In this document: positions 4,996-39,456 of the stretch, piece by piece
Position numbering within the stretch: position 1 is the first letter of the stretch
Layout of the letters: every line of letters starts with the position of its first letter
Source of the DNA: a virus
Virus genome (UHGV): UHGV-1356089
DNA: 39,456 bases
Reading direction: 5' to 3' (one strand)
Translations under genes and position numbers: made by a program
The notes under the pieces: generated by a model
The model's input: the letters and a program-made list of their open reading frames with translations, nothing else
What the model was told of the DNA's origin: nothing
Databases searched by the model: none

Positions 4996-5013
4996 TTGCA
5001 ATAAATGCAGTAT

Positions 5014-5043
5014 ATCCCGCATGAAAACTGCGGGATTGTTTTT
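5014..5043 (+). terminator. Rho-independent terminator after the tailspike gene
   Basis: ATCCCGCA-TGAAAAC-TGCGGGAT stem-loop followed by TGTTTTT. Confidence 0.75.
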
Positions 5044-5294
5044 ATCTAGTGTATTTGTGAGTTTTAAATAAAATTTGGTATGGATTCTTGCATCGTAGTG
5101 AACGCAGGATTACCTATGAAACAAAACTGAGACACACAAAGCTTTGCACTGGATTGCAAGGCTTTGTGTCATTCGATAGTTAAGGTGGATCACTCCACCT
5201 TTTCATCAAGACAATCCGCCCACCACTGCATCATGTCTCTGCGATTATCGAGATACTGAGCATGGTTGTAAATTCAACTAACCCAGTGAGTTGG

Positions 5295-5336
5295 CAAAAA
5301 ATTAGCGCAAGAGGACAAAAAATCACCTTGCGCTAA
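5295..5336 (-). terminator. tI/sib-like hairpin and terminator downstream of int
   Basis: Minus strand reads TTAGCGCAAG-(15 nt)-CTTGCGCTAA then TTTTTT; matches the lambda tI/sib sequence as I recall it. Confidence 0.7.
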
Positions 5337-5340
5337 TGCT

Positions 5341-5580
5341 CTGTTACAGGTCACTAATGCCATCTAAGTGTTTGATTCATAGTGACTGGATATGTTGTGA
5401 TTTGTAGCATTATGCAGTCTATTTTTTAGACTAAAGATATTATAACACATTGATATTAATGGTTTTTAATGTTTCATGTTCAGCTTTTTTATACTAAGTT
5501 GGCATTATAAAAAAGCATTGCTTATCAATTTGTTGCAACGAACAGGTCACTATCAGTCAAAATAAAATCATTATTTGATT
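5341..5580. other. attP: Lambda-type attP (core GCTTTTTTATACTAA at 5483..5497, with P and P' arms)
   Basis: Core identical to the lambda att core; arm-type sites CAGGTCACTAAT (5347-5358), CATAGTGACTGG (5378-5389) and CAGGTCACTATCAGTCAAAAT (5543-5563); core ~75 bp from the int 3' end as in lambda. Confidence 0.85.
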
Positions 5581-11833: not shown

Positions 11834-11914
11834 CTTTCTCCTGTTCTTTGTGCTGATTGAGCATTTTGTTCATCTGACGAATGAATTCTTCGTCTGACCA
11901 GTTATCTGTAAAAC

Positions 11915-12037
11915 TCATTTCCTGCGATACCACGGAAGGTTGATAGCTGATTTCATCGCTTTATTTGCTTCAAGCCACATTTTTGAATCACCAATAAATC
12001 TGGCTATTACTGCTTTGTTTTGTGCTGCACGAAGCAT
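11915..12037 (-). CDS. Kil-like small protein (40 aa)
   Basis: MLRAAQNKAVIARFIGDSKMWLEANKAM...; the FIGD-KM motif and position next to cIII resemble lambda Kil as I recall it. Confidence 0.4.
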   Translation of the reverse strand: MLRAAQNKAVIARFIGDSKMWLEANKAMKSAINLPWYRRK

Positions 12038-12051
12038 CTGGTGATTAATGG

Positions 12052-12186
12052 CTATTTCATTGCGCATAACGCCTCCAGTTGTTTCTTTGCTGCTCTGATT
12101 AATTGTTTAACTCGGCGTGATAATTCAGATTCGTGCGGGTAGAAAGCGGACATGACGCCGCTACCCGCGAGCTGAAAGTGCATCAT
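12052..12186 (-). CDS. cIII: CIII-like protein (FtsH inhibitor that protects CII)
   Basis: 44 aa; ...HESELSRRVKQLIRAAKKQLEAL resembles the lambda CIII core helix; AAGGAG RBS. Confidence 0.6.
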   Translation of the reverse strand: MMHFQLAGSGVMSAFYPHESELSRRVKQLIRAAKKQLEALCAMK

Positions 12187-12261
12187 GGGTAACTCCTTAT
12201 ATTTGATTGCATAACGAAAACGCCTCGAGTGAAGCGTTATTGGTATGCGGTAAAGCCGCTC

Positions 12262-12630: not shown

Positions 12631-12650
12631 CTGTTCATATCCTCACAGAT

Positions 12651-12676
12651 AAAAAATCGCCCTCACATTGGAGGGC
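12651..12676 (-). terminator. Rho-independent terminator in the pL operon (tL1-like)
   Basis: Minus strand GCCCTC-CAATGT-GAGGGC followed by GATTTTTT. Confidence 0.55.
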
Positions 12677-12833
12677 AAAGAAGATTTCCAATAATCAGAA
12701 CAAGTCGGCTCCTGTTTAGTTACGAGCGACATTGCTCCGTGTATTCACTCGTTGGAATGAATACACAGTGCAGTGTTTATTCTGTTATTTATGCCAAAAA
12801 TAAAGGCCACTATCAGGCAGCTTTGTTGTTCTG

Positions 12834-13013
12834 TTAACCAAGTTCTCTGGCAATCATTGCCGTCGTTCGTATTGCCCATTTATCGACATATTTCCCATCT
12901 TCCATTACAGGAAACATTTCTTCAGGCTTAACCATGCATTCCGATTGCAGCTTGCATCCATTGCATCGCTTGAATTGTCCACACCATTGATTTTTATCAA
13001 TAGTCGTAGTCAT
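12834..13013 (-). CDS. ral: Ral-like restriction-alleviation protein
   Basis: 59 aa, MTTTIDKNQWCGQFKRCNGCKLQSECMVKPEEMFPVMEDGKYVDKWAIRTTAMIARELG, matching lambda Ral as remembered; not in the ORF track because it is under 60 aa. Confidence 0.65.
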   Translation of the reverse strand: MTTTIDKNQWCGQFKRCNGCKLQSECMVKPEEMFPVMEDGKYVDKWAIRTTAMIARELG

Positions 13014-13082
13014 ACGGATAGTCCTGGTATTGTTCCATCACATCCTGAGGATGCTCTTCGAACTCTTCAAATTCTTCTTCCA
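12996..13082 (-). CDS. Tiny acidic ORF (28 aa) overlapping the ral start
   Basis: MEEEFEEFEEHPQDVMEQYQDYPYDYDY with AAGGTGAT RBS; overlaps ral by 17 nt in another frame. Confidence 0.3.
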
Positions 13083-13226
13083 TATATCACCTTAAATAGT
13101 GGATTGCGGTAGTAAAGATTGTGCCTGTCTTTTAACCACATCAGGCTCGGTGGTTCTCGTGTACCCCTACAGCGAGAAATCGGATAAACTCTATTCACCC
13201 CTACAGAGAGCAAAAGAGAAACGCCG

Positions 13227-21675: not shown

Positions 21676-21860
21676 ACGCCACAATTCAAACGATACCAGA
21701 GCTTCTTATCCAGACACGAGGCAATCAGACCGAAGTGGCAAGGATGCTTTCCTGCGCAAGAGGAACAGTGCTCAAGTACAACCGAGACAGCAAAGGCGAG
21801 CGTCATGTAATAGTTAACGGCGTCCTGATGGTCACGCCAGGAAAAAAGGGAAGACGATGA
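21672..21860 (+). CDS. ninH: NinH-like protein
   Basis: 62 aa immediately before the Q-like gene; start overlaps the rusA stop. Confidence 0.55.
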   Translation: MNATIQTIPELLIQTRGNQTEVARMLSCARGTVLKYNRDSKGERHVIVNGVLMVTPGKKGRR

Positions 21861-22375
21861 GCATAAGAGAGCTAAACCTCACCAAAGAACAGCACGATTG
21901 GCTGAATGGCTGGCTTGAGCTGTGGGGCGCATGGGTTTATTCAGGTCGTCTGGAAAAGCGCATGAGCAGCGTAATAGCGAAGTTCATGGAGAGCGTAGAG
22001 CCGGGAAGAGTTATGACAAGGCCAATGTGTAATGATGATGATGGAATGTTGATTTCTCAGGTCGTCGATTCCGTCATGTACATTGACAAGAAAGCCTTTG
22101 GCATCCTCCTCAGCTACTACGCTCATGGTTCATCTAAGCGAGCAATTGCATCCTACTATCACGCGACTGCAAAGCCACGCAAGATGTGTGGACGTGGTGG
22201 CGAGGGATGGAGAAAACCTTCACTGGCAACCTGTAGAAACGAAATTGACGACATCCTGAAAGCGTCGTTATTTGTTTTGTACCAACCAATGCAAAATGCT
22301 TTCAAAATGCGTAAACGTGTTGAGAAAGTTAAGCATGTTGCTGTTAAAAGCCTTGACATGCAATTAGCCATTTAG
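21857..22375 (+). CDS. Late-gene antiterminator Q (phage 82/P22 gp23-type)
   Basis: N-terminal LNGWLELWGAW... and ...MCNDDDGMLISQ... resemble the Q82-type family; immediately upstream of the pR'/tR' elements. Confidence 0.65.
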   Translation: MSIRELNLTKEQHDWLNGWLELWGAWVYSGRLEKRMSSVIAKFMESVEPGRVMTRPMCNDDDGMLISQVVDSVMYIDKKAFGILLSYYAHGSSKRAIASYYHATAKPRKMCGRGGEGWRKPSLATCRNEIDDILKASLFVLYQPMQNAFKMRKRVEKVKHVAVKSLDMQLAI

Positions 22376-22382
22376 CCATAAT
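22353..22382 (+). promoter_or_regulatory. Candidate late promoter pR' (-35 TTGACA, 18-bp spacer, -10 CATAAT)
   Basis: TTGACA at 22353-22358 and CATAAT at 22377-22382, at the 3' end of the Q-like gene. Confidence 0.5.
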
Positions 22383-22423
22383 ATTCACATATGCTGCTGC
22401 TTTTGCATTCAGCAACCATCACA

Positions 22424-22447
22424 AGCCCACCTCCTGTGGGCTTTTTT
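22424..22447 (+). terminator. tR'-like intrinsic terminator
   Basis: AGCCCAC-CTCCT-GTGGGCT followed by TTTTTT, about 40-45 nt downstream of the candidate pR' -10. Confidence 0.65.
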
Positions 22448-22569
22448 GCATTCGCGTGCAATCAAAACAAGAGTCTTAGTGATATGGGCCTGAGATATGG
22501 TGGTGGAAACATCGCTCCGCTCTTGGCTGTCATATCTACGCGAACAGGCTCTATCCCTAAGGTAAAGCG

Positions 22570-23082
22570 ATGAAAGAAATAAAATTAACGCCAGAAATGG
22601 TGCTTTCTGTTGTTGATTACAATCCATCATCAGGCGACTTTCACTGGAGATGGAGGCGGGGAAGAGAGAGGACCACTTTGACATGGAACTCTCGTTTTGC
22701 TTTCAAGAAATGCTCATCAATAAATTCTGATGGGTATTTAATGATTATGATTAATGGTAAAGCATACCCTGCTCACAGACTGGCATGGTTGATTGTTTAT
22801 GGCACCATGCCCGATGGTTTTATTGATCACATCAACAGGGTAAGAACAGATAACCGGATATCAAATCTTCGTCTTGTCACTCATTCCGAAAATATGCAGA
22901 ACAGGAAAATTCAGAAGAATAATAAATCTGGATACCGTGGCGTGTCTTGGGATGCTAAGTACGGGAAATGGAGAGCAAGAATTAATGCGTCTGGAAAGTG
23001 TATTAACCTTGGATACCATGATACTGCCGAACTTGCCGCTGCGGCTTTTGAGGCCGCCAGAATGAAATATCATACCGTTTAA
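22570..23082 (+). CDS. HNH endonuclease with C-terminal AP2-type DNA-binding domain (homing-endonuclease-like)
   Basis: YPAHRLAWLIVYG...IDHINRVRTDNRISNLRLVTHSENMQN (HNH) then YRGVSWDAKYGKWRARI...LGYHDTAELAAAAFEAAR (AP2-like); AAGGTAAAG RBS. Confidence 0.75.
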   Translation: MKEIKLTPEMVLSVVDYNPSSGDFHWRWRRGRERTTLTWNSRFAFKKCSSINSDGYLMIMINGKAYPAHRLAWLIVYGTMPDGFIDHINRVRTDNRISNLRLVTHSENMQNRKIQKNNKSGYRGVSWDAKYGKWRARINASGKCINLGYHDTAELAAAAFEAARMKYHTV

Positions 23083-23573
23083 AGATGTAAGCTGCCGTTA
23101 GTGACTCTTAAGTTGCAACGGTGGCTTTTTTATTTGCACAACAGGTAAGAGCATTGAACCCGCAGACCTCGCGGAATTGGTGAAAGGTGCCGCGCAGTGC
23201 TCTTATCGTTGTGGTGAATGCACAGGCTGATGTGTAAGGGCAAGAATCTTTCGCTGGATTCGGTGTGGCCACGTAGCCCGCTGTAGGCAGTTGCAGCAAA
23301 CCGGAGATCAGCACCGGTCGCCACAATCCAAACTGAGCCGTAGCCACTGGCTATCATGAATTCATCGGTGATAGTTACGCTGCGGCCTTCTACACATGAC
23401 CTTCGTGAAAGCGGGTAGCAAGAGGTTGCGCTAACAACCTCCTGCCGTTTTGCCCGTGCATATCGGTCACGAACAAATCTGATTACTAAACACAGTAGCC
23501 TGGATTTGTTCTATCAGTAATCGACCTTATTCCTAATTAAATAGAGCAAATCCCCTCAATGAAGGGGTAGAGC

Positions 23574-23777
23574 ATGTACCGTATGGACAAAATCAGAGAA
23601 TGGTTCAGTTACAGCTTCGGAGGACTGACTGCGATGGGTGGCATTCTCTCCCTGAATGACTGGGCTGTCATCATTGGTATTCTTTGTACTGTCGGCACAT
23701 TTGGCATCAACTGGTACTACAAGCGCAAAGAGCGCGAGGACAGATTGAATGGCAATGTCACCGGCACTACGAAATAG
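23574..23777 (+). CDS. Small holin (pinholin-like) with possible dual start
   Basis: 67 aa beginning MYRMDK (two in-frame Met), hydrophobic core, charged C-terminus KRKEREDRL; directly precedes a SAR endolysin. Confidence 0.7.
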
Positions 23778-24741: not shown

Positions 24742-24888
24742 ATGTCCGCAGTAAACGCGCTTCACACGCGCGACTTATGAACACAGAACCTTTCAGGATG
24801 ACCCTTGAGGATGCCGGTTTGGTGATCGGTACCTTTCTGTGGGCCGGAATCCTGTGTGACAAGGTTCATCACTAAAAGGTAATTACTG

Positions 24889-25419
24889 ATGAAGTACCCA
24901 ACAGTTATTGTCAATGGTGTGTCCGTTCGTGTTGATGAGGATGGACGCTACAACTTAAACGATCTCCATGCAGCAGCAGTTGCAAATGGAGAGGCTACAG
25001 AGCAACAGCGCCCAAGCCAGTTTTTGCGTAGCGCGCAGATAAAACGCTTCATAAAAGCACTGGAGGCCAAAGTGCAAAAAAGCACTTTGGAACAAATTCA
25101 GCCACTTAAAATAATCAAAGGTGGTGCAGAACCAGGTGTGTGGGGTGTTGAACTTCTGGCAATCAGATATGCAGCATGGATTAAGCCGGAATTTGAAATC
25201 GAAGTTTATGAAGTTTTCAAAACGGTTGTCCGTCTCGGCGTTGGCGCAATGTCCCGTCTGAATAGAATCGATCACATCATCAATACTGAAACCAAAGCGA
25301 TAAGCCAGTGCGCAAGCCAAATGGCTAAGTGGGGCGTTGGTGGGCGAAAAAGATTGCTTCATGTTGCACGTGAGAGAGCGGCAAATGAAGTGCAAATGTA
25401 TTTGCCCGGAATGGTGTGA
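24889..25419 (+). CDS. KilA-N domain protein
   Basis: N-terminal VIVNGVSVRVDEDGRYNLNDLHAAA...PSQFLRS is typical of KilA-N DNA-binding domains. Confidence 0.6.
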   Translation: MKYPTVIVNGVSVRVDEDGRYNLNDLHAAAVANGEATEQQRPSQFLRSAQIKRFIKALEAKVQKSTLEQIQPLKIIKGGAEPGVWGVELLAIRYAAWIKPEFEIEVYEVFKTVVRLGVGAMSRLNRIDHIINTETKAISQCASQMAKWGVGGRKRLLHVARERAANEVQMYLPGMV

Positions 25420-38314: not shown

Positions 38315-39456
38315 TGGCTAAAGCATGGAAAGATGTTATCGCCTCTCCACAGTATCAGGCGTTAGCACCAGAACAAAAAGCGCAGGCTCAGGAGCAATAC
38401 TTCAATGAAGTCGTTGCCCCGCAAGCCGGAGAAAATGCAGAGCAGGCTAAGCAAGCTTTCTATGCTGCCTATCCATTGCCATCTGTGCAGCCAGTGGAGA
38501 CACAACAACCAGTATCACAGCAACAACCACAGCAAAGTGGATTTATGTCGGATCTTGGTGAAGCCGTGAAAGAAACTGGTCGCGGACTGGTGCAGGCTGG
38601 CGTGAACGTGGCAAACATACCTGCATCAGTTGCCGATGCTGTAACAAGCGCGGCGGCATGGGCTGGCGGTAAACTCGGCATTGGCGATGGTACATATCAA
38701 CCAGCGCCACGAGTAACAACGCAGGGGTTAGAGCAGGACTTTGGCCTTCAGCAAGGCGCGCTCACTCCACAAACGACAGAGGGAAGGGTATTTGCTGAAG
38801 CATTGCCTTACCTCACTCCTGCTGGCGTTGAGAGAGCGGCAGCACAGGCACCAACACTTGCTGGTCGAATTGCTCAGGGGGCAACTCGCCTTCTAGCAGA
38901 AAACGCAGTTGGATCACTTGCTGCAAATAGTGCGAAAGATGATGCGGAAGCACTCGCCACCGATTTAGGCGTTGGCGTTCTGGCTGGCGGTGCTATTAAC
39001 GCTGCCGGACGTGGATTAGGTGCTGCTTATCGTGGCGTTCGTGGTGCTATTGCGCCAGAAGCGCAGCAGGCTATCAGATTTGCAGAGCGTGAAGGAGTTC
39101 CTCTGCACACCACAGACCTGTTACAGCCTACTTCCCGCGTCGGAAAAATGGCGCAAACGACAGCAGAAAATATCCCCCTGGCTGGCACAAGCGGAATGAG
39201 AGCAACGCAACAGGAAGCGAGAAGCCAGTTGGTTCAGAGATTTGCTGATAAATTCGGTGAGTATGATCCAGCGGTTGTTATTGACAGCCTTAAAGCGAAA
39301 ACATCAGGAATTCGTCGTGCCGCCGGTAATCGACTGGAGCAGGTTCAGAATGCTATGGCGGGAATAAACATTCAGCCTGCAAGAGCAATTCAGCAGATTG
39401 ATACAGAAATATCTAACCTGCAGAAGCTTGGTAAGGTTGCTGATAACGAGACTATT
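38314..39456 (+). CDS. Ejection protein gp16-like, 5' part (no stop before the window end; continues in frame at 1..855 if circular)
   Basis: ATG at 38314 overlaps the previous stop (TAATG); frame open to the last base; 39456 is divisible by 3 and the left-edge ORF is in frame 1. Confidence 0.55.
   Translation, partial: MAKAWKDVIASPQYQALAPEQKAQAQEQYFNEVVAPQAGENAEQAKQAFYAAYPLPSVQPVETQQPVSQQQPQQSGFMSDLGEAVKETGRGLVQAGVNVANIPASVADAVTSAAAWAGGKLGIGDGTYQPAPRVTTQGLEQDFGLQQGALTPQTTEGRVFAEALPYLTPAGVERAAAQAPTLAGRIAQGATRLLAENAVGSLAANSAKDDAEALATDLGVGVLAGGAINAAGRGLGAAYRGVRGAIAPEAQQAIRFAEREGVPLHTTDLLQPTSRVGKMAQTTAENIPLAGTSGMRATQQEARSQLVQRFADKFGEYDPAVVIDSLKAKTSGIRRAAGNRLEQVQNAMAGINIQPARAIQQIDTEISNLQKLGKVADNETI

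Follow-up and report, generated by a model that had tools for sequence, protein, structure and literature searches.

Introduction

The late leader of phage lambda (about 44.59-45.19 kb) lies between the antiterminator gene Q and the holin gene, and comprises the late promoter pR', the 6S/tR' region and a non-coding segment that ends at the holin gene S. PR' is described as constitutive and, in lysogens, as terminated just downstream (PMC7547250), and short conserved boundary sequences are an accepted model for the mosaicism of lambdoid phages (PMC3029335). Here we describe the corresponding interval of the UHGV virus genome UHGV-1356089 (39,456 nucleotides (nt); hereafter the window), where a gene for an HNH-AP2 endonuclease and 491 bp of non-coding DNA lie between Q and the lysis genes. 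The interval is, very probably, the late-operon 5' leader of an Escherichia coli prophage, a mosaic of the lambda/P22 type, and a free-standing HNH-AP2 homing-endonuclease cassette has been inserted into this leader. The locus is real yet ordinary, and largely known already.

Common to the window and the lambda leader are the position between Q and the holin gene, the final 240 nt, which contain the 5' arm of the sdi hairpin and align over 237 nt with lambda 44947-45185 at 94% identity, the outer stem of a hairpin (lambda about 44795-44853) and the closing helix of a tRNA-like element (lambda about 44858-44946). The window differs from lambda in having Q, the Q-binding element (QBE) and the initial transcribed region of phage-21/phage-L type, two tandem tR' modules on either side of the HNH gene, other interiors in the hairpin and in the tRNA-like element, and a class II holin instead of lambda S. 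In phage L, whose Q is 80% identical to that of phage 21, the predicted QBE consists of AATTATCC/ATTTAGCC (Zaworski et al., PMC8022706). The Q protein of the window likewise falls in PF06530, its repeats AATTAGCC/ATTTAGCC resemble the predicted phage L QBE, and in a related locus, L029, a phage-21 QBE is followed by an initial transcribed region and first terminator identical to its own. Unlike the cassettes of phages 21 and L, that of the window is a hybrid, joining an L-type QBE to a 21-type leader.

In P22-like and Shiga toxin (Stx) phages, the place after tR' is a slot for transfer RNA (tRNA) genes (tRNA-Asn/Thr in Sf6, Oslo and BTP1; Asn/Leu in L; PMC8022706). The window has the same place with the same flanks, but it is filled by a hairpin and the tRNA-like element, and contains no tRNA gene by ARAGORN and Rfam. 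HNH-AP2 proteins, in turn, are a recognised homing-endonuclease family of phages, cyanobacteria and protists, including 'IPA-HNH' of ICP1, and homing-endonuclease genes are located at recombination boundaries (PMC10448857). The window gene has in common with them the HNH_3 plus AP2 composition, the intergenic location, the presence/absence polymorphism and the mosaic boundary; it differs in that this putative homing-endonuclease gene is situated inside a transcription-control leader, between two terminators.

Location and homology of the interval

On the + strand the window carries, in this order, Q (PF06530), pR', terminator 1, the HNH-AP2 open reading frame (ORF), the 491 bp at 23083-23573, and the genes for the holin (PF16080), lysozyme (PF00959) and spanin, the interval being located, as in a lambdoid late leader, between the Q gene and a holin-endolysin-spanin cassette of the same strand (Table 1). 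This layout, proposed in an earlier note on the same DNA, is borne out by the ORFs, Pfam and RefSeq. The identical sequence occurs in three E. coli chromosomes with the same RefSeq annotation, nothing being annotated between the HNH gene and the holin, and the published genome of HK629 has the same arrangement with the HNH gene annotated. Megablast matched the 491-bp stretch to 175 phage records; for the wider interval it returned 1,429 records of E. coli.

Alignment with lambda, HK75, CUS-3, HK629 and Salmonella phage Oslo divides the stretch into four pieces (23089-23131, 23144-23207, 23209-23330 and 23331-23573). The 491 bp are not a gene; they are the lambda-homologous rest of the late leader, equivalent to the tR'-to-S interval of lambda (44.79-45.19 kb). 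Hence, as a lambdoid late leader with a common homing-endonuclease insert, the locus is not to be pursued as a new non-coding RNA gene or a cargo island.

No ORF of at least 25 amino acids (aa) was found on the + strand of the 491 bp, and the - strand has three only (79, 75 and 28 aa). Two of these overlap, at 23108-23347 and 23130-23357, and might be taken for a hidden small protein gene of 75-79 aa, if such a gene were not a short + strand ORF. We regard a hidden gene of either kind as scarcely credible: the two long - strand ORFs have no Pfam match, they extend over modules that have been exchanged completely in relatives (tRNAs, interiors of differing length), across terminator 2 their orientation is antisense to that of the late operon, and no annotator has called a coding sequence in the homologous interval of RefSeq E. 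coli, HK629, HK75, CUS-3 or lambda. The earlier note was thus right that about 490 bp lack a credible ORF (ORF list, Pfam, annotations), but not in calling such a gap unusual. Further gaps of 430-775 bp, in which both strands lack ORFs of 60 aa or more, lie at 4996-5570, 11834-12261, 12631-13226 and 38682-39456 of the window, the homologous non-coding interval of lambda has about 400 bp, and the last 240 nt are 94-99% identical to lambda and the relatives listed below.

In a survey of 125 loci the modules of the leader combined freely. Q was of two types, each accompanied by a leader of its own, the HNH gene was present or absent, the segment behind was either tRNA-Asn + tRNA-Thr or a hairpin plus a variable segment, and the holins were of three types.

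Table 1. Features of the late leader and its surroundings (window coordinates).
Feature	Position	Strand	Basis
Antiterminator Q gene, phage-21/phage-L family	21857-22375	+	Pfam PF06530 Phage_antitermQ, E=1.3e-25; RefSeq 'antiterminator Q family protein'
Late promoter pR'	22353-22395 (-35/-10 span 22353-22382)	+	TTGACA-18-CATAAT, 11/12 positions (promoter scan)
pR' -35, TTGACA	22353-58	+	part of pR'
Tandem predicted Q-binding repeats AATTAGCC/ATTTAGCC, between -35 and -10	22362-77	+	likeness to predicted phage L QBE
pR' -10, CATAAT	22377-82	+	part of pR'
-10-like putative pause element, TATGCT	22390-95	+	about +2 to +7
Terminator 1, phage-21-type tR' (8-bp GC-rich stem + T6)	22423-22449	+	terminator scan, fold
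R1, structured 5' leader of HNH gene	22448-22575	+	covariance model, 94.1 bits; covariation
R1, short GC hairpin	22448-59	+	part of R1
R1, about 100-nt hairpin, basal helix pairs with Shine-Dalgarno	22466-22569	+	covariation, pairing probability
HNH_3 + AP2 gene, intact, 170 aa	22570-23082	+	Pfam; RefSeq 'HNH endonuclease signature motif containing protein'
Terminator 2, native tR' of HNH-less alleles (hairpin + T6)	23089-23131	+	fold -20.2 kcal/mol, z = -3.6; HK75 'Tr''
Hairpin with conserved 10-11-bp outer stem and variable interior (TAAGAGCA...TGCTCTTA)	23144-23207	+	inverted repeat, fold, three-lineage comparison
tRNA-like element (candidate)	23209-23330	+	closing helix, T-arm-like hairpin, tail
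tRNA-like element, 8-bp closing helix	23209-16 / 23319-26	+	unconstrained folds
tRNA-like element, T-arm-like hairpin	23300-18	+	compensatory changes
tRNA-like element, tail UCCA	23327-30	+	aligned with tRNA-Thr 3' end
Lambda-conserved block (lambda 44947-45185; labelled 'bsq3; boundary sequence' in CUS-3)	23331-23573	+	alignment
Block hairpins	23337-86; 23411-57	+	folds, repeats
Mutually exclusive pairings	23471-79/23503-11 vs 23502-14/23541-53	+	folds, repeats
sdi-type hairpin CCCCU-CAAUGA-AGGGG, directly before start codon	23552-67	+	fold
Class II holin, first lysis-cassette gene	23574-23777	+	Pfam PF16080, E=4.4e-21; RefSeq 'phage holin family protein'
Second R1 copy, ahead of KilA-N gene	24780-24890	+	covariance model, 80.9 bits
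KilA-N gene	24889-25419	+	Pfam, E=7.3e-18

The HNH-AP2 gene and the two terminators

Both domains of the HNH ORF score above the Pfam cut-offs, HNH_3 in the N-terminal part (E=2.1e-18, 66.1 bits, full-length 1-46/46) and AP2 in the C-terminal part (E=1.6e-08, 35.1 bits). Compared to HK75, CUS-3 and Oslo, the window and HK629 contain about 700 extra bp, extending in the alignment from directly past CATAAT to about 23085, and the HNH cassette is a clean presence/absence indel with respect to these three phages as well as to L029. The first 67 nt of the insert (22383-22449) are identical to the leader and terminator situated behind a phage-21-QBE promoter (ATTGAGCA/AATGAGCA) in L029, where they are joined directly to a hairpin equivalent to 23144-23207. 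As the start of the insert matches the L029 leader with terminator 1, and the native tR' follows, the HNH gene lies between two alternative tR' modules. Terminator 2 is invariant in HK629, HK75, CUS-3 and Oslo-type relatives and identical to the annotated Tr' of HK75, a phage in which pR' is annotated on this sequence as well; at its position lambda has its own 6S/tR'.

The hexamer TA(T/A)GCT is kept seven bases past the -10 box in both leader types, that is, in alleles with and without the HNH gene, at a position that would suit a sigma-dependent pause element involved in the loading of Q. The promoter, repeats and hexamer are read directly from the DNA, and by analogy with phage 21 and phage L they would serve Q binding and pausing.

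The same HNH gene (at least 96% identity) is present in 40 IMG/VR loci, and in the 125-locus survey it goes together with downstream modules of the tRNA type or of the hairpin type, and with either of the holins. Its features fit a putative free-standing homing-type endonuclease at a mosaic boundary, as has been described for the family (PMC10448857). It would be a late gene, because Q-modified polymerase would read through terminators into it. The locus may thus serve as an example of a selfish nuclease residing inside a Q-antitermination control region without breaking it, as it sits between two alternative tR' modules with the spacing of the pause element retained.

Two other HNH-AP2 genes, 39-42% identical to that of the window, are inserted nearby in the same late leader of other phages. 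One of them (L066) is located after the TAAGAGCA hairpin, and its ORF extends into the conserved TGTGGTGAATGC flank; the other (L073, the same as L206) lies in the lambda 6S leader directly past the pause element, with AAGAAT replacing AACGAT.

R1, a structured leader shared by cargo genes

Approximately 120 nt between terminator 1 and the start of the HNH gene recur before other HNH genes, before an ANT gene in a Hafnia phage, before a KilA-N gene in a Klebsiella phage, and before the KilA-N gene of the window itself. This segment, which we call R1, is (at 22466-22575) the best-supported conserved RNA structure within the region that the earlier note had covered. In the MAFFT alignment of seven copies (A5), 88.9% of the cells in paired positions were paired, compared to 36-50% when the pairing partners were slid; 16 of the 29 pairs were changed on both sides, and none of 500 shuffles matched this result. 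A covariance model was built from the seven aligned copies. With filters off it gave two matches in the whole window, namely the HNH and KilA-N leaders only, and it found about 50 R1 copies among the loci collected.

An exact-pattern scan of IMG/VR, in which the basal helix was left free by the search pattern, yielded at least 100 new loci, and 98 of 100 among the matches listed were also matches of the model. In all, R1 has over 100 copies in other phages. In the alignment of this independent set (A8) 94.9% were paired, compared to 32-53% when slid, and in the basal helix (helix 1) all seven pairs were changed on both sides, with 98.9% pairing. Thus, the earlier proposal to look for compensatory changes was rewarded at R1, more weakly at the closing helix of the tRNA-like element, and not at all in the 23418-23445 hairpin and the 240-nt block, which are considered below.

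The basal helix of R1 pairs CCUUU with the AAAGG of the Shine-Dalgarno sequence, whose median pairing probability over 32 distinct leaders is 0.915. G.U pairs are frequent in R1 when it is read on the + strand, which suggests that the structured molecule is the RNA of the + strand. A terminator is situated just upstream of R1 in 30 of the 32 distinct copies of the first set (A7), and the genes behind it encode HNH-AP2, T5orf172/MUG113, Rha, KilA-N and ANT proteins, as well as unknown ones. No such family was found in Rfam 15. In the simplest reading, R1 is a translational brake on potentially harmful cargo genes of the read-through late transcript, the structure being established by covariation and the brake being what we infer from it. 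R1 would then be a widespread, covariation-supported candidate translational-control leader, common to nuclease and antirepressor-type cargo genes.

Homing-endonuclease genes of phage T4 (I-TevI and relatives) have hairpins that sequester the ribosome-binding site. R1 is similar to these hairpins in that the Shine-Dalgarno sequence of a nuclease gene on a read-through transcript is hidden, but it has no sequence relation to them, forms a two-hairpin module of about 110 nt, is common also to Rha, KilA-N, ANT and T5orf172 genes, and has no internal late promoter that we could find. In particular, the promoter scan detected none inside the R1 leader, where HK629 annotates one.

The int-alpA RNA (RF02996) is likewise a structured motif directly upstream of phage genes, including distant homologues of the window HNH protein (L214, L235). 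However, its fold and sequence differ from those of R1, and it has no match in 22300-23700 with E<=10, nor does it reach the gathering threshold anywhere in the window.

Several observations concern individual copies and their neighbours. The region of the second R1 copy (24745-24891) is located behind the Rz terminator and has GAACCTT/AAGGTTC as its outer stem, compared to GAGCCTG/CAGGCTC in the HNH copy. In HK629 (L002 953-958) the annotated 'putative late promoter pR'' falls within the R1 hairpin, while the TTGACA/CATAAT promoter that contains the Q-binding repeats extends over the end of Q. For HK75_56 (L004 3348), the start annotated is inside an R1 hairpin, 25 codons upstream of the start predicted from the motif. 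Distant HNH-AP2 homologues are preceded by a different structured motif (L214 1101-1168 and L235 1106-1173; also L199, L227, L190, L205, L195, L240 and L182), and for two copies of it the int-alpA score attains the gathering value of Rfam; a sar RNA is situated close by in L240.

Folding of the non-coding stretch

The minimum free energy of the + strand of 23083-23573 is -187.4 kcal/mol, compared to -151.0 +/- 5.9 kcal/mol for dinucleotide shuffles (z = -6.1); for the - strand, z = -3.4. The many inverted repeats reported earlier are real, with structure beyond that of shuffled sequences. They include TAAGAGCATTG/CAGTGCTCTTA at 23146-23156 / 23195-23205 (the 8-nt arms named in the earlier note flank 44 nt), GCAAGAGGTTG/CAACCTCCTGC at 23418-23428 / 23435-23445, and five further pairs. 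The first of these belongs to the hairpin 23144-23207, where three unrelated interiors of 37-41 nt (the window, lambda and L066 types) are enclosed by the same outer stem.

A region so highly structured could be an independent trans-acting small RNA (sRNA), comparable to the Hfq-bound Pas sRNAs beside holin genes. PasA, PasC and PasD adjoin holin-lysozyme operons in prophages of enteropathogenic E. coli and are abundant and Hfq-bound (PMC8550237, PMC13192938); as in the window, these are non-coding RNA features just upstream of a lambdoid holin gene, in Stx-type prophages. On the other hand, PasA and PasC lie on the opposite strand (Table S6, PMC8550237), each Pas sRNA ends in its own stem-loop and poly-U terminator (PMC13192938), and there is no sequence similarity, as blastn of PasA, PasC and PasD2 against the window with word size 7 gave only random matches of 10-15 nt. 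The promoter scan found no promoter-like site within 23083-23573 on either strand, and the covariance-model search returned no Rfam 15 family in the whole window. The available part of the RIL-seq tables for E2348/69, a strain carrying the leader, has no entry at the leader coordinates. We consider an independent sRNA to be very improbable, and the suggestion of a structured non-coding RNA with a gene of its own was not sustained.

The identity of the stretch as a known RNA family was rejected, as there were no Rfam 15 matches at the gathering threshold in the whole window, and the matches at E<=10 in 22300-23700 were at chance level.

A candidate tRNA-like element

The third piece of the alignment, 23209-23330, occurs in six interior types of 83-216 nt, alike only at their ends, and all of them close, in unconstrained folds, with TTGTG(G/C)TG / C(A/G)(C/G)CACAA. 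A second IMG/VR scan brought the total to 195 loci and still six interior types, and all eight pairs of the closing helix were kept in 188 of the 195 loci. In lambda, the helix contains GTGCTG/CAGCAC, compared to GTGGTG/CGCCAC in the others, a change on both sides; the remaining substitutions are G.U to A-U and two wobble singletons. The T-arm-like stem also keeps its pairing through double changes, being ACCGG/CCGGU, GUCGG/CCGAC and GUUGG/CCAAC in three types, and the HK75 type has a canonical T arm, GCCGG-UUCGAUU-CCGGC, as the only type with a canonical T loop. Five of the six types possess the 8-bp helix, the adjacent 5-bp hairpin and a UCCA/CCCA tail; in lambda, the closing helix and the tail are found as well, but the last hairpin is another one. 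When aligned with tRNA-Thr of Oslo, the (U/C)CCA tail matches the discriminator and CCA, and Oslo and many others carry tRNA-Asn + tRNA-Thr exactly between tR' and the conserved block. This agrees with the earlier suggestion that the slot between Q and the lysis genes is a cargo site, the tRNA genes of the siblings being located exactly here (PMC8022706).

Evidence of this kind gives weak to moderate support, at the level of sequence comparison, to a putative tRNA-like element, which could be either a decayed tRNA or a processing signal equivalent to the real tRNAs of the siblings. The proposal that the stretch contains a decayed cargo gene was in part justified, since its middle segment ends in sequences like a T arm, an acceptor strand and NCCA that align with the tRNA-Thr 3' end. 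If 23209-23330 were a mere decaying relic of a tRNA cargo without present function, one could readily explain the siblings' tRNAs at exactly the same place, the alignment of the 3' end with the T arm, acceptor strand and CCA of tRNA-Thr, the canonical T loop retained in the HK75 type, and the rejection of all types as tRNAs by ARAGORN and Rfam. We nevertheless hold a functionless relic to be rather unlikely, because a long-range helix kept while the interior is replaced is not expected of a neutral relic: the closing helix persists around six interiors of 83-216 nt in 188 of the 195 loci, and its substitutions (G-C to C-G, G.U to A-U, two wobble singletons) preserve pairing.

A tRNA gene as such was a rejected candidate for 23209-23330, in all types. 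ARAGORN detected no tRNA genes in the window, relaxed thresholds producing only implausible calls of 87-94 nt, and Rfam gave no tRNA match at E<=10 in 22300-23700; in HK75 and CUS-3 the sole Rfam signal was a 17-nt T-arm match to tmRNA (E=0.05).

Searches of one-genome-per-species bacteria returned 29 matches with no new interior types, mostly phage-lambda contamination. Matches of the conserved 20-mer in non-enteric assemblies (L248-L276), among them Pseudomonas, Bacillus relatives, Bradyrhizobium, Kitasatospora and several metagenome-assembled genomes, are mostly identical to lambda, an apparent spike-in or contamination. Two loci (L083, L122) have a rearranged lambda-type allele in which the 5' strand of the closing helix is replaced, with a T-arm-like fragment (GTCGGAGTTCAGCACCGACCATCACAA) upstream.

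The conserved block and the proposed control of the late operon

The last 240 nt before the holin gene are 94-99% identical in lambda, HK75, CUS-3, Oslo and about 100 IMG/VR loci, and this identity holds with either lambda S or a class II holin downstream. CUS-3 annotates such segments as bsq3/bsq4. The 5' arm of the sdi-type hairpin comes from the conserved block, and its 3' arm from the holin module. In lambda, the sdi hairpin sets the choice between the S105 and S107 starts, and with it that of holin or antiholin (PMC3359269), and the N-terminus of the window holin, MYRMDK, appears dual-start-like. Regulatory sites had been suggested in the stretch; this is partly right, as it contains a second intrinsic terminator and a predicted sdi-type hairpin at the holin start.

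The most likely scheme is the following. Without Q, transcripts from pR' would end at terminator 1 (22423-49), with terminator 2 (23089-131) as a back-up for read-through; the hairpins and T-runs are present, and their activity is presumed. Polymerase modified by Q would pass both terminators, the HNH cassette and the hairpin-rich leader, and proceed into the holin, endolysin and spanin genes. The HNH protein would be made late and, if R1 represses it as proposed, sparingly. The tRNA-like element, or the real tRNAs in siblings, may mark a processing site at which the leader is cut from the lysis mRNA, leaving the hairpin 23337-86 at the 5' end. The sdi-type hairpin would tune the choice of the holin start. 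Finally, the flanking blocks, being highly conserved across phages with different Q and holin genes, could play the role of recombination joints ('boundary sequences') of the lambdoid mosaic.

The novelty of the locus is modest and consists of the well-supported R1 leader and the suggestive tRNA-like element, neither of which is in Rfam 15. That both are undescribed functional RNA elements, a 'moron leader' of about 110 nt throttling translation of potentially toxic cargo and a tRNA-like processing signal in lambda itself, is a tentative proposal, which we would put at somewhat below an even chance. If it is true, the 'moron leader', a GC hairpin followed by a long hairpin burying the Shine-Dalgarno sequence, travels with DNA-binding and nuclease cargo in the late operons of enterobacterial lambdoid phages and is released by processing or by a trans-acting factor. 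The tRNA-like element (lambda about 44,858-44,946) would then replace the tRNA genes of the siblings as a signal of the RNase P/tRNA-maturation type; a cut there would remove the leader with its terminators, and the lysis mRNA would keep the conserved hairpin 23337-86 as protection of its 5' end. We found no described function for the tRNA-like segment of lambda, and this structured piece of the late leader is directly testable in lambda.

Several points weigh against the scheme given above. In the 23418-45 hairpin, the most variable position pairs in 29 of 86 distinct sequences and is unpaired in 57 of the 86 (AC 21, GC 25, AA 7, GA 17, TC 11, TA 4, AG 1), and T-to-C changes in its stem produce uncompensated C.A mismatches. 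Thus, the hairpin noted earlier near 23422-23441 is real as an inverted repeat, but is not supported as a conserved structure, its variable positions changing without compensation. In the same 86 distinct sequences the hairpin 23337-86 is nearly invariant, and neither RNAalifold nor explicit pair tables gave compensatory support anywhere in the 240-nt block, which may be conserved owing to recent spread and recombination and not for a function of its RNA. In the tRNA-like element the independent events are few: among six types, the closing helix has one double-compensated pair and the T-arm-like stem three. A simple terminator scan missed terminator 2 as well as the hairpin 23411-57. Terminator strength, processing and translation control are all deduced from sequence.

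One may ask whether the conserved parts of the 491 bp owe their preservation solely to a role as recombination joints (Clark-type 'boundary sequences'), or are merely young and widespread, their hairpins having no RNA role beyond tR' and sdi. The label 'bsq3; boundary sequence' in CUS-3, the 94-99% identity of the block beside unrelated Q and holin genes, the substitutions in 23418-45 that ignore pairing, and the accepted status of the boundary-sequence model (PMC3029335) all agree with this alternative. Yet it seems unlikely on balance, as the + strand folds better than the - strand (z = -6.1 vs -3.4), the closing helix and the T-arm-like stem keep pairing through two-sided changes, the conserved stems contain G.U pairs on the + strand, and the hairpin 23337-86 is followed by a T-run, in a terminator-like manner, in phage-21-type alleles.

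Literature searches for extra terminators between tR' and S of lambda found nothing. The phage-21-type alleles (e.g. L008, L010 and L017, with an S21-type holin MKSMDK...) retain only the first approximately 60 nt of the block, and in them the equivalent of the 23337-86 hairpin resembles an intrinsic terminator, because TTCTTTTTT follows it just upstream of the holin.

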